Of a stretch of DNA of 51,824 nt, positions 8,277 through 46,232 are shown piece by piece. Each line of letters begins with the position of its first letter. Position 1 is the stretch's first letter. The translations under genes and the position numbers were made by a program. The notes under the pieces were generated by a model. The model was not told the origin of the DNA. It made no database searches and saw only the letters and a program-made list of their open reading frames with translations. Origin of the DNA: Patescibacteria group bacterium (GTDB taxonomy: Bacteria > Patescibacteriota > Minisyncoccia > Phycocordibacterales > JAACPR01); NCBI GenBank assembly GCA_022711495.1, contig JAKLEX010000001.1, positions 502,882 to 554,705 on the forward strand, in the 5' to 3' direction.

Positions 8277-10799
8277 CTATTTGATCTTCCAGCCGGTCGC
8301 CAGATATTCTTCGGCCTTTTTAAACTTCACCTGAATTTCTTTGCCATCTTTTATCAAAGTCACCTTGTCGTTTCTGCCGAATCTTGAATCAGCGCCGGCT
8401 GATACCTGTTTGCCTAGTGATTCAGCCCGAGCTCCGCTGGTAATTTGAGCGGCTTTAACATTTTCGCGTAATTTTTGCTCGGCTTTTAAGAAGGCGCCGG
8501 CGCCGAGGTTGGGTAAAATATTTATAATCTGTTCATAGATGGCCTCTCTCATGGATTTGAATAACCTAAGCGCCTCTTTTCTATATTCAACTAAAGGATC
8601 GCGTTGACCGTAAGCTCGAAGATTAACGCTTGATCTGGTGTAATCCATCGTCTCCAGATGATCCACCCAGAGCGTATCAATACTCTGCAAAACGACGCGC
8701 CTCAAAGTTTTGTACCACTCGTCTTCGCCGAGAGTTTGTTTTTTTTCTTCAATAATTTTTTCTATTTGCTCTCCGCCCCGCGCGATAATTTCCAAAATCT
8801 CCGCTTCCAACGTCTCACGATTGCCTAGCAAAACTTTACGGCGGCGCTCATAGACCGAAGCTCTTTGCGTGTTCAAAACGCTATCAAATTCAAGCAAATG
8901 TTTTCGGGCATCAAAATGAAAGCCCTCAATTTTTGTTTGCGCGTTTTCCAGAGCGCGAGAAATCATGCGATTCTGGATCGGTTCTTCTTCGGGCAAACCG
9001 AGCTTGCTCATGAGGGTCTTCATGGTCGGCGGAGCAAATATTCTCATTAGAGAGTCATCCAAAGAGACGAAAAATTGTGTCTCGCCCGGGTCGCCCTGTC
9101 GTCCGGACCGCCCTCTTAACTGGTTATCAATTCGGCGAGCTTCGTGGCGCTCAGTACCAACAACAAATAATCCTCCCAAACTTTTAATTTCTTCATATTT
9201 TTGTGAATCAAAAGGTTCACCACCTAACTTAATGTCAACTCCGCGACCAGCCATGTTGGTAGCGATTGTCACTGTGCCCTTTTTACCGGCCTGAGAAATT
9301 ATCTCGGCCTCTTTTTCATGATTCTTGGCGTTCAATATGTTGTGCGGAATGCCATTTTGAGTCAGATATTCGGAGACCAGTTCATTTTTCTCAATTGAAA
9401 CCGTACCGACAAGCACCGGCTGACCTTTTTCATGCAGTTCTTTTATCTTTTTAATTAGCGCCTTAAATTTCCCAGTTTCCGTCTGATAGATTAAATCATT
9501 GTAATCGGTGCGGGCATTGGGCCGGTTAGTTGGAACAACGGCCGTTTCCAACCTATAGACTTTAAAGAACTCCTCGGCGCTGGTTTTGGCCGTACCGGTC
9601 ATGCCGGACAGCTTTTTATACATTTTGAAATAGTTCTGATAAGTAATAGAAGCGAAAGTTCTGGATTCCTGACCGACTTCAATTCCCTCTTTGGCTTCTA
9701 TGGCCTGGTGCAAACCCTCCGACCAGCGACGACTCGGTTGCATTCGTCCGGTAAATTCGTCAACGATGACAATTTTTCCGTCACGGACGACATAATCTTT
9801 GTCTCTTCTAAAGAGGGCTTCGGCGCGAACGGCCGTCTCCAAATGATGAACATATTTAATACCTTTCTCACTATAAATATTCTGGACACCCAACATTTTC
9901 TCGGATTTGGAGATGCCGGAGTCGGTCAAGCCTATTGATCGCGTTTTTTCGTCAACGGTGTAATCTTCATCTTTTTTAAGTTGGCGAGAGATTTTGGCAA
10001 AAACCCCATAAAGATTTTCCGCATCAGCCGATGGCGCAGAAATAATTAACGGAGTTCGCGCCTCGTCAATCAAAATAGAGTCAATTTCATCCACGATGGC
10101 AAAATTATGTTCCCTCTGTCGGAGATTTTCCGGATCGTACTCAATATTGTCTCGAAGATAATCAAAACCAAATTCGCTGTTCGTACCATAAGTGATGTCC
10201 GCGGCGTAAGCTTCTTTTCGCGAAATTGGACGAAGATAGTCATAGATAATATGAAAAAACCCGAAAGCGTCTCTTTCTTCGTCTTGTTTTTCACTGGTGT
10301 GACTTGGATCGTAGACATAAGAGGCCTGCTGGTTAATAACTGCCACGCTGAGACCCAAAAAGTTATAAATTTGTCCCATCCAGACGGTGTCACGACGAGC
10401 CAAGAAATCGTTTACCGTGATGACGTGAACGCCCTTACCAGTTAGAGCATTTAAATAGACCGGCAAAGTGGCTACTAGGGTTTTTCCTTCACCGGTGCGC
10501 ATCTCGGCGATATTGCCGTCGTGAATAACCATTCCTCCTAGGAGCTGAACGTCATAGTGCCTCTGTTTCAAAGTCCGGACAGCGGCTTCGCGAACAACGG
10601 CAAAAGCTTCTGGCAAAATATCGTCCAGAGTTTTACCCTTAGCAAGCTCGGCTCTAAAGAACTGAGTTTTGGCTTTTAACTGCTCATCGCTTAAAGCTGA
10701 AATCTGTTCAGAAAAAGAATTAATCGCCGGAATTTTTGATTCGTATTTTTTCAACAAACGGCGGCCGCCGTCCCCAAAAATTTTTGACAGAAATGACAT
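8277..10799 (-). CDS. secA: Preprotein translocase ATPase SecA
   Basis: MRTGEGKT Walker A, IVDEIDSILIDEARTPLIIS, TNMAGRGVDI, QLRGRSGRQGDPG. ATG 10799 is preferred as start. Confidence 0.98.
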   Translation of the reverse strand: MSFLSKIFGDGGRRLLKKYESKIPAINSFSEQISALSDEQLKAKTQFFRAELAKGKTLDDILPEAFAVVREAAVRTLKQRHYDVQLLGGMVIHDGNIAEMRTGEGKTLVATLPVYLNALTGKGVHVITVNDFLARRDTVWMGQIYNFLGLSVAVINQQASYVYDPSHTSEKQDEERDAFGFFHIIYDYLRPISRKEAYAADITYGTNSEFGFDYLRDNIEYDPENLRQREHNFAIVDEIDSILIDEARTPLIISAPSADAENLYGVFAKISRQLKKDEDYTVDEKTRSIGLTDSGISKSEKMLGVQNIYSEKGIKYVHHLETAVRAEALFRRDKDYVVRDGKIVIVDEFTGRMQPSRRWSEGLHQAIEAKEGIEVGQESRTFASITYQNYFKMYKKLSGMTGTAKTSAEEFFKVYRLETAVVPTNRPNARTDYNDLIYQTETGKFKALIKKIKELHEKGQPVLVGTVSIEKNELVSEYLTQNGIPHNILNAKNHEKEAEIISQAGKKGTVTIATNMAGRGVDIKLGGEPFDSQKYEEIKSLGGLFVVGTERHEARRIDNQLRGRSGRQGDPGETQFFVSLDDSLMRIFAPPTMKTLMSKLGLPEEEPIQNRMISRALENAQTKIEGFHFDARKHLLEFDSVLNTQRASVYERRRKVLLGNRETLEAEILEIIARGGEQIEKIIEEKKQTLGEDEWYKTLRRVVLQSIDTLWVDHLETMDYTRSSVNLRAYGQRDPLVEYRKEALRLFKSMREAIYEQIINILPNLGAGAFLKAEQKLRENVKAAQITSGARAESLGKQVSAGADSRFGRNDKVTLIKDGKEIQVKFKKAEEYLATGWKIK

Positions 10800-10821
10800 G
10801 GATATCCTCCGATAATAGCAC

Positions 10822-10851
10822 AAAAAGCAAAGCCCTCAACTTAGTGAGGGC
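10822..10851 (-). terminator. Intrinsic terminator of the protamine-like gene
   Basis: GCCCTCA-N6-TGAGGGC (10832-10851) followed on the minus strand by TTTGCTTTTT. Confidence 0.65.
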
Positions 10852-10871
10852 CCGGCTCCAAGCATCTGCGC

Positions 10872-10985
10872 TTATCTTCTTCGGCTAGACTTTCTCCTTG
10901 AAGATCTCTTGGCTGATTTCTTTGCCTTTTTTGCAGATCTTTTAGCTGACTTTCTTTTTGCAGCTTTTCTTTTCTTTGCAACCAT
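10872..10985 (-). CDS. 37-aa ultra-basic protamine/histone-H1-like peptide (below ORF-track cutoff)
   Basis: MVAKKRKAAKRKSAKRSAKKAKKSAKRSSRRKSSRRR*; 12 K + 9 R, no acidic residue; A-rich region before ATG; terminator downstream. Confidence 0.8.
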   Translation of the reverse strand: MVAKKRKAAKRKSAKRSAKKAKKSAKRSSRRKSSRRR

Positions 10986-11082
10986 TTTTATTTTGTTAAC
11001 TGATAAAAGTTTTCTTCCCTACTTAATTATCGCAGCATTCGAGCAGACCGAAAGACTTTTTTGAAAAAATATGTGGATAAGT

Positions 11083-11116
11083 TAAATTTTCTCAAAAATA
11101 TTTTTGAGAAAATTTA
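11083..11116. repeat. 34-bp perfect AT-rich palindrome
   Basis: TAAATTTTCTCAAAAAT|ATTTTTGAGAAAATTTA; TGTGGATAA (DnaA-box consensus) lies at 11072-11080. Confidence 0.85.
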
Positions 11117-11124
11117 TTTTAAAA

Positions 11125-11243
11125 AATAAAAATCGCCGCGATTCGCGGCGACTCCTTGCGTCCTGGATTGGCCGGTGAGCGCTAGCTCCAACGAATATCT
11201 TACGTGAGTGCGATACACCGACCAGTCCAAAACACAATCTCAT
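11125..11243 (-). ncRNA. Predicted structured sRNA-1 (22-bp stem, 38-nt loop, terminator hairpin)
   Basis: Arms 11237-11216 and 11177-11156 give 21/22 pairs including 4 G-U on the minus strand (these are mismatches on plus). TGC-TATACT extended -10 at 11256-11248. Terminator UCGCCGCG-AAU-CGCGGCGA followed by a U-tract. Confidence 0.65.
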
Positions 11244-11373
11244 AAAAAGTATAGCAAAATTGTAACAAGGTTACAGCCAGACTTGTGAACATTCTGTTGG
11301 AGATATTTTAAAAAAAATTTATTTGATGATACCCCCGTTCCGGTTAGCCAGAGACATCCGACCGCCAATCACC

Positions 11374-11448
11374 AAAAATGCAAATCCCCGCCGAAGCGGG
11401 GACTTACACAGATATTCGTTCGTGGAGCTATTCGCTCACACTCACGCC
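11374..11448 (-). ncRNA. Predicted sRNA-2, complementary to the loop of sRNA-1
   Basis: Promoter TTGCGC(11481-11476)-N17-TATACT(11458-11453); ends in a GUCCCCGC-UUCG-GCGGGGAU hairpin followed by U-rich sequence. Confidence 0.6.
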
Positions 11449-11541
11449 AGTTAGTATAGCAGACGTTTATAAAAAGCGCAAGTGGATAACAATTTGGGGA
11501 ATTTCCAAGGAACAATCGCCGCAAATCTGGAAAAGTTGAAC

Positions 11542-13701
11542 CTAGATTTGGCCCGCCTCAACATTTTGCCTCATCTCTAGCAACTGGTACTGATAATTTG
11601 GAAACTTAAGAAGTGCTTCGTCCAAAATCAAAAGGGCTTTTTCTTTATCGCCAATACGATTATAGAAGGCCGACAGAGAGATTAGGACCTGCACGTTATC
11701 CGGTTGTTTTTCTATATTGTATTTAAGAAAGCTGATTACTTTTTCGGTATCACCTTGTTCAACCGCCTCATCAATTATTTCACCGAAAAGTTCTTTATCC
11801 GTGACAGCGGCCGCTCTGATGTATTCAAACCAGAGGTCGTCTTTGCTAGTGTCCAAATTATAGGTCTCTTTTGCCAAAGCCAGAGCTTTATCGTTTTGTC
11901 CCGATTGTAAATAAACGCGAATCAAAGGAATTCTTATGGCCTGTTTGTTCGGAGAAATTCTTATCGTCTCAAGCAATTCTTTTTCGGCATTTTCCAGATC
12001 GCCAGTTAAGGCATAAAAGGTTCCCAACAGATAAGTGATTTTAGAGTCTCCGGGTGTTTCAGAAATTTGTGCTTGCAATTCCGAAATTGTTTCTTTAATA
12101 AAGTCGCTCTTCACCTGATTGGCGGAATCATCTTTTATATTCAAGATTGTCTCAATTGACATGGCCATTCGTTGACGAATTTCTGGATTTCCGAAAGTAT
12201 TTCTGGATATAGCGTGCTTGAACAGATTAAGATTTTCATTCAATCCTTCGGCATGATAGTAAGTATAAGTCTCGCCGGCAGGAGAAGAAACTTTTTTTAC
12301 CAAGCGCATGGCGCTCACCAATTCCCTGTTAGCGGTGTAGCTCGGATAATTTATAAAATAGGCTGATACCGGTATGGCCAAGATCGCCAACCCAATAAGC
12401 GAGCCGGTAATAATTTTTGGTGAATTAAACTGAAAGAGCTTTACATCAGAACTATTTGTTGAGTGAACATAAGCCAGAATCAAGAAAAAGAAAATATAGC
12501 TGACTAAATGGTCAAAGACAAATAGATTATGAAAAAAGTAAGCCGCGAGGAGACCAGATAGAATGCTTTTATCAAGACGGCTAAACGTAGAAGTTTTATT
12601 CCAAATCAAATAAACAAGGGATAGTAAGATGAAGAGATAGAAGACCAGACCAAGAACGCCTCCGGCGATCAACCAATCAAGGACGATGTTGTGGGTTCTA
12701 TCAAACCAAGCTTCATTGCCGTGCATCTCCGGCAAATAATATTTGTCAAAGGCCAAATCATAATTATTTTGTCCCCAACCTAAAATCGGCCTTTCTTTAA
12801 AACCAGACCAGGCGATTTGCCAGTTTATCAAACGGGCTTGAGCCGTTCCTTCACTTAGAGAAATGCTGGCAATTCTATTGAGAGCATAATTATTACGAAC
12901 AAAACTCGTGTCCTTTGCAAACCAGAAAGAAGCGGTGGCCGCGACAATCACCAGTAATCCGCCAATGGCAAATGATCTTATCTTTTTATTTCCCCAGTGA
13001 GTAAAAATAACGACAAGAGCGGTTAGCGACAGGCCACCAACTAGACCAAGAACGGCTCCGCGAGTACCGGTCTTAAACAAAATGAAAGTATTAACGAAAA
13101 TGACTGCCCAATAAAGATAATAAAACCACCTTTTATAGTTTATCCGCGATAAATAGAACAGAGAAAGAAAGATATGAAACAACATGTAAACGGCCAAATA
13201 GATAGGATTCCCGAGAGTCAAATCAACTCGGCTGATCTCGTCACTGCCTAATAATTGTTTCAAAGCCAAAAGAGCCAAAACAAAACTGGCAAAAATTGAT
13301 ATGTTAAAAATCCACGCCCACTGCCGTTCCCCTTTTAAGACTGAGCCAGCCACTAAAAATAGACAAAATAAGTGGGCCAAGGTCACGTATCCTTCCATTC
13401 TTTCAAAGTTGCTCCAGAAACTGGCGGTTTGATTCGCCCCAAAATAGTTAGAGACAAAGATACTGACTAAAAAGACTATCAATCCATATAAAATCAAGCT
13501 TTTCTTTGGACGATATTCTTTATTTAACACTGCCAAAATAAGCCAAAGGAAAAAGATTATTTCCACAATGATGCGAAAGAAATAGGCCTTACCGGTTATG
13601 TAAGGGAAAAAGAGACTATTGGCCACGATAAAGGGAGTAAACAACAGCGCGGCGATTCCACAAAAAATCGTGTATTTCAGGACCTTATCAATATTTGTCA
13701 T
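11542..13701 (-). CDS. O-antigen ligase / O-oligosaccharyltransferase-like (Wzy_C) protein with C-terminal TPRs
   Basis: Multi-TM; TLGNPIYLA, TGTRGA, RPILGWGQNNY, DRTHNIVLDWL motifs; TPR-like C-terminus. Confidence 0.85.
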   Translation of the reverse strand: MTNIDKVLKYTIFCGIAALLFTPFIVANSLFFPYITGKAYFFRIIVEIIFFLWLILAVLNKEYRPKKSLILYGLIVFLVSIFVSNYFGANQTASFWSNFERMEGYVTLAHLFCLFLVAGSVLKGERQWAWIFNISIFASFVLALLALKQLLGSDEISRVDLTLGNPIYLAVYMLFHIFLSLFYLSRINYKRWFYYLYWAVIFVNTFILFKTGTRGAVLGLVGGLSLTALVVIFTHWGNKKIRSFAIGGLLVIVAATASFWFAKDTSFVRNNYALNRIASISLSEGTAQARLINWQIAWSGFKERPILGWGQNNYDLAFDKYYLPEMHGNEAWFDRTHNIVLDWLIAGGVLGLVFYLFILLSLVYLIWNKTSTFSRLDKSILSGLLAAYFFHNLFVFDHLVSYIFFFLILAYVHSTNSSDVKLFQFNSPKIITGSLIGLAILAIPVSAYFINYPSYTANRELVSAMRLVKKVSSPAGETYTYYHAEGLNENLNLFKHAISRNTFGNPEIRQRMAMSIETILNIKDDSANQVKSDFIKETISELQAQISETPGDSKITYLLGTFYALTGDLENAEKELLETIRISPNKQAIRIPLIRVYLQSGQNDKALALAKETYNLDTSKDDLWFEYIRAAAVTDKELFGEIIDEAVEQGDTEKVISFLKYNIEKQPDNVQVLISLSAFYNRIGDKEKALLILDEALLKFPNYQYQLLEMRQNVEAGQI

Positions 13702-29379: not shown

Positions 29380-29456
29380 TGGTGCGCGATCCAGGAGTTG
29401 AACCTGGGGCCTCGTCATTATCAGTGACGCGCTCTAACCACCTGAGCTAATCGCGC
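29380..29456 (-). tRNA. tRNA-Ile(GAU), CCA encoded
   Basis: GCGCGAU/AUCGCGC acceptor stem, CGUCA-CU-GAU-AA-UGACG anticodon arm, GGUUCAAC T-loop. Confidence 0.96.
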
Positions 29457-42250: not shown

Positions 42251-42614
42251 ACACTGAATTTTATACAATCGGGAAATTGTATTTCCACGAAACAAATCTT
42301 AGAAAAGTCTGATTTCTAGATTTCCTAATGAGATCGATTAATTAGTACGCCTTGGCTGAACACATTACTGTGCTTACACCTAGCGCCTATCAACGTAGTA
42401 ATCTCCTACGGATCTCAAACGATTCCTAATCTTGGGGCTAGCTTCATGCTTAGATGCTTTCAGCATTTATCTAAACCCGACATAGCTACAGAGCAATGCT
42501 CTTGGCAGAACAGCTCTCACACCAGAGGTCGGTTCACCTCGGTCCTCTCGTACTAGAGGCAACCCCCCGCAAGAATCAACGCCTACAGCAGATAGAGAAC
42601 CAACCTGTCTCACG

Positions 42615-43046
42615 CATGCCAATCACCTGTTGCCAGATGCATCGGACTAGATCTTCGCTTTTCACAAAAAATTGCCAACTTCGTGAAAGGCAGCCGGTTA
42701 TTAGTCTCTACGGGTCTGTGATGATTTCAAATGAATATCACTCCCCTCGGAATTGTCTTCGGTTCATTTCGTAAATCTATAAATTATAGATAGCGAAACT
42801 TGCTAAAGATTTTCCCGATATTAACCGACTTTTTCTTTCTTTGTTTGTTTGAGCGCTTGCGCGCGTCACAAAGAAGACCGCCGTGAATATTGATTTTCTA
42901 CACATGTTTACTCAACATGTTTTAGACAAAAAGACCTAAACATAATAACACTTCTTCTACATTCGAATTCGATGTTCGTATTGGTTTGATAACTCGCCTC
43001 TAGGATTCAGATTGGTTCATGAGCCGAAAAAATTTTCCGCTCATGA
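42615..43046 (-). other. Group I intron at 23S position 2593 (432 nt, no homing endonuclease ORF)
   Basis: Exon ...CAGACCGU | intron ...GCAUG | CGUGAGAC. P AAUAUCGGGAA, Q AAUUCCGAGG, R GUAGAGACUA, S AAGAUCUAGUCC; P3 GUCGGUUA/UAACCGGC; IGS UUCACG-GCGGUCU gives the U.G splice pair and P10; GCAA-capped P9. Confidence 0.92.
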
Positions 43047-43709
43047 ACGGTCTGAACCCAGCTCACGTAACTTTTTAATTGGCGAACAGCCAAACCCTTG
43101 GGACCTTCTCCAGCCCCAGGATAAGTTGAGCCGACATCGAGGTGCCGAACACTACCGTCGATATGAACTCTTAGGTAGTACCAGCCTGTTATCCCCAGGG
43201 TAACTTTTATCCGTTAATCTCTGGCCGCGTCTAAAGCGTACCATCGGTTCACTATGTTCTGCTTTCGCACCTGCTCGTCATGCACGACTTGCAGTCAAGC
43301 CAGCTTGTGCCATTACACTATCGGCACGATTTCCATCCGCGCCTAGCTGACCTTAATAAACTCCTCCGTTACTCTTTAGGAGGATAGCGCCCCACCAAAA
43401 CTACCCACCAGACACTGTTCCGCGCCGTTTTTGCCGGCGAGGTTAGATTGTACATTTTTACAGAACGGTATTTCACTGACGACTCCACTTTTCCCAAAAG
43501 AAAAGCTTCAAAGTCTCCCGTCTATGCTACGCAGTAAAAACGTACAGCCAATGCCAAGTTGTAGTAAAGCTCCTGGGGTCTTTCTGTCTTGCTGCAGGAA
43601 GGCGGCATCTTCACCGCCATTGTATTTTCACCGAGCAAGTCCTCGAGACAGTTCCCCAGTCGTTACACCATTCGTGCGCGTCTGAACTTACCAGACAAGG
43701 AATTTCGCT

Positions 43710-43954
<245 letters not shown>

Positions 43955-44787
43955 CGGGGCTTATATCAGTCAGCACCAAACATTTTAGAAACGAATTTCT
44001 TCGCGCCCAAAATGTTTGGCACCGCCGATATTTGACCTTCCGGCATTGGTCAGGTGTCGCCCTCTATACATCATCTTACGACTTCGCAGAGAGCTGTGTT
44101 TTTGGTAAACAGTCGCCAGGGATTCTTTAGCTGCGGCCCCATAACTTAATACAGGGCAGGCCTTATCGCTAACTTACGGCCGCTTTTTTGCCGAGTTCCT
44201 TGAGGACCTCTCACTCGTTCGCCTTAGTCTTCTCGACCAAACTACCTGTGTCGGTTTACGGTACGGATTGTTTTAAATTAAGCTTAGAAGTTTTTCTGGG
44301 AAGCCTTTTTTATTCTGTCTCTCTTGGCGAACCGCAAGATTCTGATATCGAATCGGCCTGATGTCTTCCGGATTTTCCTAGAAGACAGCCTCTCGACTTC
44401 AACCCAAATCCAATAATGGGCAGAACATAATAGACTCCGTCACTCCATCGCATCTAAAACAAGTACTGGAATATTAACCAGTTATCCATCGGGTTCGGCT
44501 TTCGCCATCCCCTTAGGACCGACTAACCCTTCGCTGATTGTCATTGCAAAGGAACCCTTAGTTTTTCGGCGTGCGGGGTTTTCACCCGCATTGTGGTTAC
44601 TCGTGCCAACATTCTTACTTCATAACGCTCCACCATGGGTCACCCCTTTGGCTTCAACGCGGATATGAATACTCTCCTACCGCTCGCACTTTTCCGAAGA
44701 AAAATACAAGCCCTCAGCTTCGGTACTATACTTAGCCCCGATTATCTGCGGCGCGGAATCTCTTGACGAGTGAGCTGTTACGCTATC

Positions 44788-44819
<32 letters not shown>

Positions 44820-45393
44820 TCGTTGTATAAGAAATTCCACCTCCTTAAGTGCACTTAGTATAAATTTTGGGACCTTAGCTTGAGATCTGGACTGTTTTCC
44901 TTTTGACCGACGAACCTTAGCGCCCGTAGTCTTACTGCCAAGCTCTAACTTTGGGTATTCGGAGTTTGGTAGGCGAGATGAGATTTCTCCCTATTCTAAC
45001 CTTCCAGTGCTCTACCCCCCAAAGGAACACTTGACGCTATACCAAAATATATTTCGGAGAGAACCAGCTATTTCCAAGTTCGATTAGCTTTTCACTACGA
45101 CCCACAAGTCATCCGAGCGAGTTGAACAACACACCGGTTCGGGCCTCCTCTGATATTTCTATCAGATTCACCCTGCTCATGGGTAGATCACTTGGTTTCG
45201 GGTCTGATACGTTATACATTTGTTCGCGCTATTAACACTCGGTTTCCCTAAAGCTCCGTCCCATAGGACTTAGCTTGCAAAACGCATCAACTCGTTGGCT
45301 CATTCTTCAATAGGCACACCGTCGAGGTATTGCTACCTCTTCGATTCCTTGTAGACATATGGATTCAGGTCTATTTCACCGCCCTAATCGGGC

Positions 45394-45435
<42 letters not shown>

Positions 45436-46232
45436 TAAAAGAATATTTAGCCTTGCCGGTTAGTTCCGGCAGCTTCACCCGAGCTATTCGTGTCTCGAGA
45501 TACTCAAGAGCTGAAACAAAAGAGAGAATTTGCTTTCATCTACAGGACTATTACCTTTTGTAGTATTTCTTTCCAGAAATTTCGATTAACAAACTCCTTT
45601 GTAACTCTTCTCGTGCAAGCACGACGTTTCAGTCTTACAACCCTCATCCCCCACCATCTAATAAAAGATAGCTTTTTGGGATAAGTTTGGGCTTCTTCCT
45701 TTTCGCTCGCCGCTACTAAGGAAATATTTCTCTACTAATGCAGAGATTGTTTTCTTTTCCTCTAGGTACTGAGATGTTTCACTTCCCTAGGTTTGCTCCT
45801 TCTGGTCAAGCCAGAAGGTGCCGCACAAAATGCGGCGGGTTTCCCCATTCGGACATCTTCGGATAAAAAGTTGCTATACACTTCCCCGAAGCTTATCGCA
45901 GCTATGCTACGTCCTTCATCGCTTCTTTTAGCCAAGGCATCCACCATACGCCCTTAGATTCCCATTAGGAAATCTAAAAACCACTTAACTTTTCTACTGT
46001 TTGTTTGTGAAAATACAATTTCCTGATTGTATTTACAATTATTCAATTTTCAAATAACAGTCGTCCCGATTTTTCTCATTCCGTACCCAGCATCCCAAAC
46101 TAGTCGCCTAATTCGGGACTCTCGATAAAGAAAGACCGCTTCGTCTGAAGCGGCCAGTTCTCGCGTACGCGTTAAAATCACGTTCAGACTGGCCGTTTCA
46201 AACTTAGATTTTCCCTCATATTTGTAGGAACG

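Follow-up and report, generated by a model that had tools for sequence, protein, structure and literature searches.

Does the interval upstream of secA in a Patescibacteria group bacterium encode two small RNAs (sRNAs) that bind each other, and if so, with what consequence? The window analyzed here is the entire 51,824-nt stretch spanning positions 502,882 to 554,705 (forward strand) of contig JAKLEX010000001.1 (GenBank assembly GCA_022711495.1), from a Paceibacteria member of the candidate phyla radiation (CPR) with a tiny genome. An initial annotation, made from the sequence letters, had proposed two tandem sRNA genes beside a gene for a basic peptide, with RNA products pairing in either of two mutually exclusive registers, and had suggested looking in relatives for covariation both within the stem of the longer RNA and between the two RNAs. 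Our results make it rather probable that the locus contains two separate sRNA genes, sRNA-1 and sRNA-2, whose products form a specific RNA-RNA complex as a dedicated, vertically inherited sRNA/anti-sRNA pair.

Both units are read from the minus strand, and each has a promoter and a terminator of its own. The same extended -10 box, TGcTATACT, was read in the sequence at 11453-11461 for sRNA-2 and at 11248-11256 for sRNA-1; the former is preceded, 17 nt upstream, by a -35-like TTGCGC (11476-11481), likewise read in the sequence. The predicted sRNA-2 transcript is about 73 nt long (11374-11446), with a 5' end placed to +/-2 nt from the -10 box and a 3' end in a U run. It contains, from its 5' terminus, X1 (GCGUGAGUGUGA, 11436-11447), M (UAGCUCCA, 11423-11430), the mostly single-stranded X2 (ACGAAUAUCU, 11410-11419), and a terminator hairpin, T1 (11378-11409, located by consensus scan), with 14 pairs, a UUCG loop, and a U run behind it, which is the cUUCGg terminator of the initial annotation. 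The predicted sRNA-1 transcript, about 120 nt (~11241-11121), comprises a long hairpin followed by the terminator hairpin T2 (11128-11156, 13 pairs, also from a consensus scan), with a U run extending to ~11121. The arms of the lower stem, roughly 21 bp long, lie at 11216-11237 (5') and 11156-11177 (3'). Above them are X1' (UCGCACUCACGU, 11202-11213), the 5' strand of the upper helix (GC / CUC / CA) and target of X1; X2' (AGAUAUUCGU, 11191-11200), within the apical loop, a fast-evolving "address" for X2; and M' (UGGAGCUA, 11183-11190), which forms the 3' side of the upper helix, holds an invariant UGGAG, and is complementary to M.

The closest SecA proteins in one-genome-per-species data (48-69% identity) came from metagenome-assembled genomes of Paceibacteria, Nomurabacteria, and Kaiserbacteria. 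For comparison, we used 80 secA loci taken from GTDB species genomes (labeled L001 and so on). Ahead of secA, and on the same strand as that gene, blastn and nhmmer located sequences similar to both units. Covariance model R1, for sRNA-1, matched the window at 11152-11244 (67.3 bits, E value 7e-16), its sole sense-strand match in 51.8 kb, and model R2, for sRNA-2, matched at 11371-11452 (76.5 bits, E value 7e-14). Exactly one sRNA-1 was found by R1 in 33 of the 80 loci, always co-oriented with secA and 58-2900 nt upstream of it. R2 placed sRNA-2 in 16 secA loci in addition to the window, one copy per locus and beside sRNA-1. Paceibacteria with a SecA only 50-67% identical to that of the window still have both units ahead of secA. 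The SecA tree groups all RNA-bearing loci in a single clade (support 98), with the adjacent sRNA-2/sRNA-1 arrangement found in basal lineages and in the subclade of the window; a single change on the tree explains the state in which sRNA-1 occurs by itself near secA. A dispersed repeat family was also considered: each unit is present once in the window and once per related locus, at a syntenic place, and the window shows no enrichment of the motifs.

The initial annotation had described sRNA-1 as a 22-bp stem around a 38-nt loop, and the stem was borne out. In the minimum free energy (MFE) fold the lower stem has 20 pairs with one 1x1 interruption, and in the alignment the lower-stem helix (RNAalifold and pair counts) has 24 pairs, of which 23 changed on both sides, with 88% of cells paired. 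The consensus hairpin from the 23-sequence alignment comprises 29 pairs, 23 of them with compensatory changes; 90% of the cells were paired, as opposed to 72% in column shuffles (0/500) and 40-48% with slid partners. Within sRNA-1, G-U pairs were tolerated but A-C pairs were not. The 38-nt loop is not fully open: it is partly structured, with 7 conserved pairs identified inside it by comparative analysis. These form an upper helix of GC, a bulged A, an invariant CUC:GAG, a second bulged A, and CA:UG, so that the 5' strand reads GC-A-CUC-A-CA and the 3' strand UG-GAG-YUN-GC, with a bulge of 3-4 nt on the 3' side and an asymmetric internal loop. The C, U, C, and A of X1' are invariant in 23 sequences, and only the apex is open and variable. 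By eye, a -10-like box was found 6-12 nt ahead of the hairpin in the relatives inspected. Terminators like T2 follow sRNA-1 in L004, where the terminator lies between sRNA-1 and murB, in L065 and L001, and in the Nomura-type loci defined below. Six other relatives (L002, L003, L005, L007, L013, and L023) have no terminator after sRNA-1, and murB starts 0-7 nt from the base of the hairpin.

The layout of sRNA-2 is GUGAGUG (X1), a variable middle, the single-stranded X2, and the terminator. A -10-like hexamer (at least 4/6) was present in all 21 sRNA-2 genes, mostly 5-9 nt before the UGAG core, and had a TG extension in 14 of them; from the position of this promoter, the RNA is therefore predicted to begin directly with GUGAGUG. 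A -35 hexamer starting with TTG at a 16-17-nt spacer is found in most of the 21 genes by manual count of the listing, and 7 of the 21 pass a scripted criterion of at least 4/6. Compensatory changes were found in 9 of the 14 pairs of T1 (16-sequence alignment), and many of its pairs are G-U on the minus strand only. The promoter and terminator that had been assigned to each unit in the window are thus kept in relatives.

Two stretches of complementarity between the RNAs are evident in the window: GUGAGCG..UAGCUCCA..ACGAAUAUCU against AGAUAUUCGU-UGGAGCUA-g-CGCUCAC, and GCGUGAGUGUGA against UCGCACUCACGU. Paired with the apical region of sRNA-1, the 5' domain of sRNA-2 forms a duplex with a predicted energy of -39 kcal/mol; dinucleotide shuffles gave -20.1 +/- 3.6 kcal/mol, and 1 of 1,000 reached the observed value. 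The second stretch, noted initially as a 12/12 pairing of the sRNA-2 5' end, turned out to be a conserved helix, X1:X1'. It was evaluated in an alignment (A3) with each side anchored solely on its own invariant core. Over 13 columns, 82.8% of the cells were paired and 9 pairs had changed on both sides; each of five measures was reached by 0-1 of 500 shuffles, and slid controls gave 17-55%. The 8-pair core contained 12 G-U cells and just 3 non-pairs, a pattern that points to selection at the RNA level on the minus strand. As in the hairpin of sRNA-1, the intermolecular helices tolerated G-U but not A-C.

The first stretch had been annotated as 7+8+10 bp; all three parts exist in the window, and they differ in how widely they are found. 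The 10-bp part, X2:X2', is conserved as a pairing between fast-changing sequences (AAAAAAUGAAAAACU / AGUUUUUCAUUUUUU in L007 and ACAAAUGCC / GGCAUUUGU in L020). We evaluated it without alignment, using the variable segments alone and comparing cognate with non-cognate duplex energies. The cognate mean was -11.6 kcal/mol, as opposed to -6.7 kcal/mol for non-cognate combinations, and none of 20,000 permutations reached the cognate mean. The 8-bp part, M:M', extends the X2 helix into the invariant UGGAG in the window and in some species but is not universal; equivalents were recognized by eye in L035, L059, L005, L027, and L030. The 7-bp part, GUGAGCG / CGCUCAC, is specific to the window, with no counterpart among the relatives. 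In many species, the complementarity spans nearly the entire apical half of sRNA-1. Thus, two intermolecular helices co-vary across related species, and the X1:X1' covariation together with the cognate test establishes a conserved, selected pairing between both RNAs. The comparison of relatives suggested by the initial annotation therefore yielded compensatory changes at both places, within the sRNA-1 stem and between the RNAs.

The initial proposal of two mutually exclusive registers is not supported. X1:X1' and X2:X2' occupy different nucleotides on both RNAs, and opening the strands of X2:X2' costs little (4.2 and 1.8 kcal/mol). With opening costs taken into account, the energies are -4.7 kcal/mol for X2 alone, -5.7 kcal/mol for the register annotated earlier, and -11.3 kcal/mol for X1 and X2 jointly, the best combination. 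The two registers are therefore parts of one complex. Within sRNA-1, X1' also pairs with the UGGAG strand, which X1 must therefore displace.

The genes of the two RNAs are separable. In L023, sRNA-2 lies on the opposite strand, divergent from sRNA-1. In 17 sRNA-1-bearing loci, sRNA-2 was absent around secA within the retrieved sequence, which reached up to 4 kb to either side. These 17 loci constitute a single derived, Nomurabacteria-rich clade on the SecA tree, termed Nomura-type here, in which the sRNA-1 loop, GGCACAUAUGU, is nearly invariant. The X2 of the missing partner was predicted from this loop, and metagenome contigs were scanned for GUGAGUG-N(8-38)-ACAUAUGUGCC, where ACAUAUGUGCC is complementary to GGCACAUAUGU. 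Eighty loci were returned, two of which (L147 and L123) were true R2 matches, at 39-41 bits, each with a TTGCGT/TGaTATACT promoter 6 nt ahead of GUGAGUG and a proper terminator; R1 gave no match near the sRNA-2 of either. The other returned loci had no R2 match, save for a weak terminator-only one of 21.5 bits in L142, and are probably chance matches to the pattern. The MltG adjoining the unlinked sRNA-2 is 86% identical to proteins named Candidatus Nomurabacteria. Relatives of this MltG offered a route independent of the DNA pattern and led to three more sRNA-2 genes (L201, L208, and L217), with X2 reading CAACAUAUGUGCC or ACAUAAGUGCC.

RNase P RNA adjoins sRNA-2, in either orientation, in four loci (L147, 5164-5474; L123, 1769-2076; L208, 1398-1801; L035, 2605-3080), and in L201 a 550-nt gap occupies the same place, without an RNase P match at the gathering threshold. 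The sequences thus suggest that the partner sRNA-2 of the Nomura-type clade is encoded next to the RNase P RNA gene (rnpB), away from secA. An intermediate order, rnpB, sRNA-2, sRNA-1, peptide, secA, was found in L035, a locus that the SecA tree places just outside the Nomura-type clade. From this order and the unlinked loci, we conclude that a block of rnpB and sRNA-2 split from sRNA-1 and secA. The inversion and the unlinking exclude a single obligatory transcript as well as a simple inverted-repeat remnant, and, together with the conserved promoter and terminator of each unit, they identify two separate transcription units on genomic evidence. What had been proposed as a trans-encoded RNA-RNA switch thus stands as a pair of separate genes with covarying complementarity, not as a switch between exclusive registers.

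How might such a pair work? We infer that both RNAs are transcribed and bind in the cell, in the following order of steps. X2 would nucleate the complex by pairing with the open apical loop of sRNA-1, forming a species-specific "address" helix. The free 5' end, X1, would then invade the upper helix, pair with GCACUCAC, and displace the UGGAG strand. The CUCA/UGGAG motif of the upper helix, the most likely functional site of sRNA-1, would be remodeled or masked as a consequence; cleavage of both RNAs by RNase III, prompted by the long duplex, is a further possibility. A variant in which the two RNAs are an obligate heterodimer would fit equally well.

RNAcofold of both RNAs predicted almost no interaction (difference in free energy, ddG, -1.7), but in its formalism pairing between a linear segment and the loop of a closed hairpin is a pseudoknot; duplex energy and opening costs were used instead. 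Several observations weigh against this picture. The order of the helices, X1..X2 against X1'..X2', is "crossing," and the complex must therefore be junction-like for both to form at once. In the six relatives where murB follows within 0-7 nt with no terminator between, the murB mRNA would have sRNA-1 as its 5' end, and sRNA-1 may thus serve as a 5' leader as well. For the unlinked Nomura-type genes, pairing between RNAs of the same genome is suggested by conservation at the level of the clade. Nor are the RNA data unambiguous. The sRNA-1 of the window was found in no listed RNA run, and sRNA-2 words occurred solely in a relative's run of unspecified kind. The sole metatranscriptome contig on the window (X5) covers 11446-11616; its edge at 11446 is an assembly break, since a DNA-run contig ends there too. 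Words of the Nomura-type sRNA-1 were found in at least 8 RNA libraries, and those of the sRNA-2 of that type in RNA libraries too, but the contigs concerned carry promoter-side flanks, so that DNA carry-over or read-through may account for them.

We regard it as possible, if not as the likelier case, that the two RNAs are obligate pieces of a single functional RNA, the heterodimer serving as a junction-shaped scaffold or ribonucleoprotein (RNP) core in the manner of two-piece transfer-messenger RNA (tmRNA) or of the CRISPR RNA and its trans-activating partner (crRNA:tracrRNA). Both genes being retained, and still matching after unlinking, agrees with this idea, as do the extent of the pairing, which in many species leaves little of the apical half of sRNA-1 uncovered, and the constitutive-looking promoters of both genes. 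Sequence data alone do not separate it from a regulator and its anti-regulator; however, each RNA alone has a stable, co-varying fold, which suggests a separate existence, no protein gene travels with the pair, and seven loci inside the RNA-bearing clade have neither RNA near secA. It is conceivable, and we hold it doubtful, that an obligate bipartite RNA is ancient in this Paceibacteria clade, with the CUCA / UGGAG junction as the working part of a housekeeping RNP, tied perhaps to the envelope/secretion genes around it (murB, ddl, mltG, secA) or to RNase P RNA, and with the fast-evolving X2 helix as nothing but a species-specific assembly "zip code." A role of sRNA-1 chiefly as a cis-acting 5' leader or attenuator for the envelope/secretion genes downstream (murB, the basic peptide gene, and secA), with sRNA-2 acting in trans on read-through or stability as in the antisense attenuation of pT181 and pIP501, appears unlikely. 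The constant co-orientation of sRNA-1 with secA and its place upstream fit a leader, and so do the six loci where murB directly follows the hairpin, the terminator ahead of murB in L004, and the terminators that elsewhere come directly after sRNA-1. Yet every species retains the long stem, and no alternative antiterminator pairing was noticed; sRNA-2 would bind at the apex, with about 25 bp separating its site from the terminator; the strong terminators and the separate promoter-like site of the peptide gene favor a discrete sRNA in the window; and the start region of the peptide gene has no complementarity.

Two further explanations are very improbable. The hairpins could be ordinary terminators, and the complementarity what is left of a partial inverted duplication or of a repeat like a miniature inverted-repeat transposable element (MITE), with no RNA function. 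The 5' domain of sRNA-2 does resemble a rearranged reverse complement of the sRNA-1 apex, and the 5' strand of T1, GCGUAAGUCC, is in our reading faintly like X1, which makes an origin by duplication plausible. A remnant is nonetheless hard to reconcile with each unit being single-copy and syntenic across the window and the 80 loci, with compensatory changes in intra- and intermolecular helices that admit G-U but not A-C, with the cognate specificity of fast-evolving segments, and with conserved promoters. Hardly more credible is one long structured RNA of about 325 nt that starts at the first promoter and closes on a long-range helix. The whole 341-nt region does fold with its complementary parts as such a helix (z score against shuffles, -6.2), but sRNA-2 is inverted in L023 and has a different location in the Nomura-type clade, the spacer, constant neither in length nor in sequence, contains a -10 box in every case, and T1 co-varies as a terminator hairpin with U runs.

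Do the RNAs belong to a known family? Rfam 15 gave no match at gathering thresholds in 10800-11600, as the initial annotation had anticipated, and the best scores of a permissive search (22-24 bits against thresholds of 55-80) covered terminator hairpins only. ARAGORN detected no tmRNA. Signal recognition particle (SRP) RNA, 6S RNA, tmRNA, and RNase P RNA were rejected for want of Rfam or ARAGORN support; in addition, the apex of sRNA-1 is its least conserved part, the opposite of SRP RNA. A kink-turn in the internal loop was likewise rejected, as we read no tandem G-A pairs in the consensus. Binding of tRNA 3' ends (NCCA) by UGGAG, in the manner of a T-box, is conceivable. Full-text literature searches on small RNAs and riboregulators of CPR/Patescibacteria returned nothing relevant, and both RNA families appear to be undescribed. 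No target or protein partner of either RNA was found. The sole target test run compared sRNA-1 and sRNA-2 with the start region of the basic peptide gene; the mean z score over 24 relatives was about 0, and targeting of this region was rejected because the complementarity was at chance level. The three-component module that had been proposed, with the peptide as third member, is not upheld: its gene is kept near secA, but neither RNA shows complementarity to it above chance, and murB separates sRNA-1 from it in some relatives. Neither RNA proved complementary to RNase P RNA, where CACUCA/CUCCA sites and any consistent signal were lacking, and the adjacency of RNase P RNA is best read as synteny.

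Three other classes of system were rejected. A type I toxin-antitoxin, where one RNA codes for a small toxic and usually hydrophobic peptide and the other keeps it from being translated, does not fit because the open reading frames (ORFs) inside the units lack a conserved start in the relatives inspected (L004 and L005, for example), and the adjacent ORF of 37 amino acids (aa) is 57% Lys/Arg with a start region complementary to neither RNA; the antitoxin-like role considered initially falls with the lack of a conserved ORF in either RNA. In a cis-encoded antisense system the genes would overlap; here they do not, the complementarity is segmented and imperfect, and the genes can be unlinked. 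A single structured RNA or riboswitch leader over both units is contradicted by the inversion in L023, by the unlinked partner, and by a spacer that varies and has a -10 box of its own.

Among known systems, stand-alone sponge sRNAs such as RosA-RoxS are the closest in kind. SroC and AgvB, both of which act on GcvB, are stand-alone sRNA sponges. Another is RosA of Bacillus subtilis, which acts on RoxS and FsrA (PMC8216469). The present pair resembles these three in having two independently transcribed, trans-encoded sRNAs with imperfect pairing and no need of a shared locus, and presumably in that one RNA neutralizes or remodels the other. It differs in showing no homology to them in sequence or structure (Rfam negative) and in being a dedicated couple, one RNA to one RNA, whose co-evolution spans a deep clade, with a fast-changing "address" helix. 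Known sponges usually mimic the mRNA target site of a conserved seed, whereas no mRNA target was found for this pair, and its lineage is CPR. The closest parallel to the proposed mechanism is the pairing of a 5' end with a hairpin by RNA-IN and RNA-OUT of IS10 (PMC5006887). In both cases, an RNA uses its 5' end to pair with a stem-loop partner whose upper stem must open. The IS10 RNAs are cis-encoded on opposite strands, match perfectly over 35 nt, and control a transposase mRNA. The present RNAs come from separate genes, their complementarity falls into two or three segments, and neither is protein-coding. The nucleation of IS10 pairing was reportedly detailed by Kittle, Simons, and Kleckner in 1989.

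OxyS and fhlA pair through two separate kissing helices, and CopA and CopT of plasmid R1 form a four-way junction. Our pair likewise involves two separate short helices with a hairpin loop and should give a junction-like product, but those systems regulate mRNAs (fhlA and the repA leader) and CopA/CopT is cis-encoded on a plasmid, whereas both partners here are non-coding and chromosomal, and one of the helices is made by the sRNA-2 5' end in competition with an intramolecular helix. RNA I and RNA II of the par/Fst locus of pAD1 constitute a type I toxin-antitoxin with dispersed complementarity. They share with the present pair two small transcripts, adjacent promoters, and contact at more than one separated region; unlike par/Fst, neither RNA here has a conserved ORF, the nearby ORF is ultra-basic rather than hydrophobic, and the locus shows vertical inheritance and synteny. 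With the RosA, IS10, OxyS-fhlA, and CopA-CopT systems the pair shares no homology.

CPR/Patescibacteria genomes are very small, and the organisms cannot be cultured alone. A pair that co-evolves across a deep clade even after its genes have separated suggests a function under strong selection. It provides a clean natural case of intermolecular RNA covariation with a rapidly changing specificity helix, and R1 and R2 are ready covariance models for annotating CPR genomes. Strand invasion of a conserved helix by an RNA 5' end is a hypothesis testable wholly in vitro, and the pairing further predicts that genomes with the sRNA-2 segment ACAUAAGUGCC should carry GGCACUUAUGU.

The surroundings of the two genes yielded some further observations. 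Downstream lies secA (8277-10799, minus strand), and upstream is a gene for a 719-aa protein with Wzy_C (O-antigen-ligase-like) and TPR domains (11542-13701). The ultra-basic ORF between sRNA-1 and secA (10872-10985, minus strand) looks like a real small gene: at least 24 related loci (L001-L074) have it (MAAKKK...KKRA/RRR, 20-103 aa) conserved ahead of secA, and its product matched no Pfam family. Between the sRNA-1 terminator and the promoter-like site of the peptide gene is an AT-rich palindrome (11078-11121) with 23-nt arms that are 91% complementary, which could be an operator or a bidirectional terminator. DNA-run contigs break at this palindrome, where a 34-nt piece has a higher word depth, as expected of a palindromic k-mer. 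The spacer between the sRNAs is 130 nt and includes a 49-nt branched hairpin (GGUGAU...AUCAUC, 11325-11373, minus strand) followed by an A/U-rich run with eight U; the hairpin is specific to the window, with no blastn counterpart among the relatives.

The seven loci of the RNA-bearing clade with neither sRNA near secA form a subclade (L045, L037, L036, L033, L034, L031, and L029), and the upstream flank of L029 is almost absent; both RNAs may have been lost, moved, or diverged there. In several Nomura-type loci (L009, L014, L018, L019, and L028), a tRNA gene preceded by ddl stands in the place of sRNA-2, probably tRNA-Arg(UCG), as the anticodon loop reads UCG by eye. Elsewhere in the window, the tRNA-Ile gene (29380-29456) is remote from the rRNA genes, and the 16S gene (31758-33253) and the 23S match (42321-45970) are about 9 kb apart. 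The 23S match is 3650 nt long against a model of 2925 positions and thus carries insertions.

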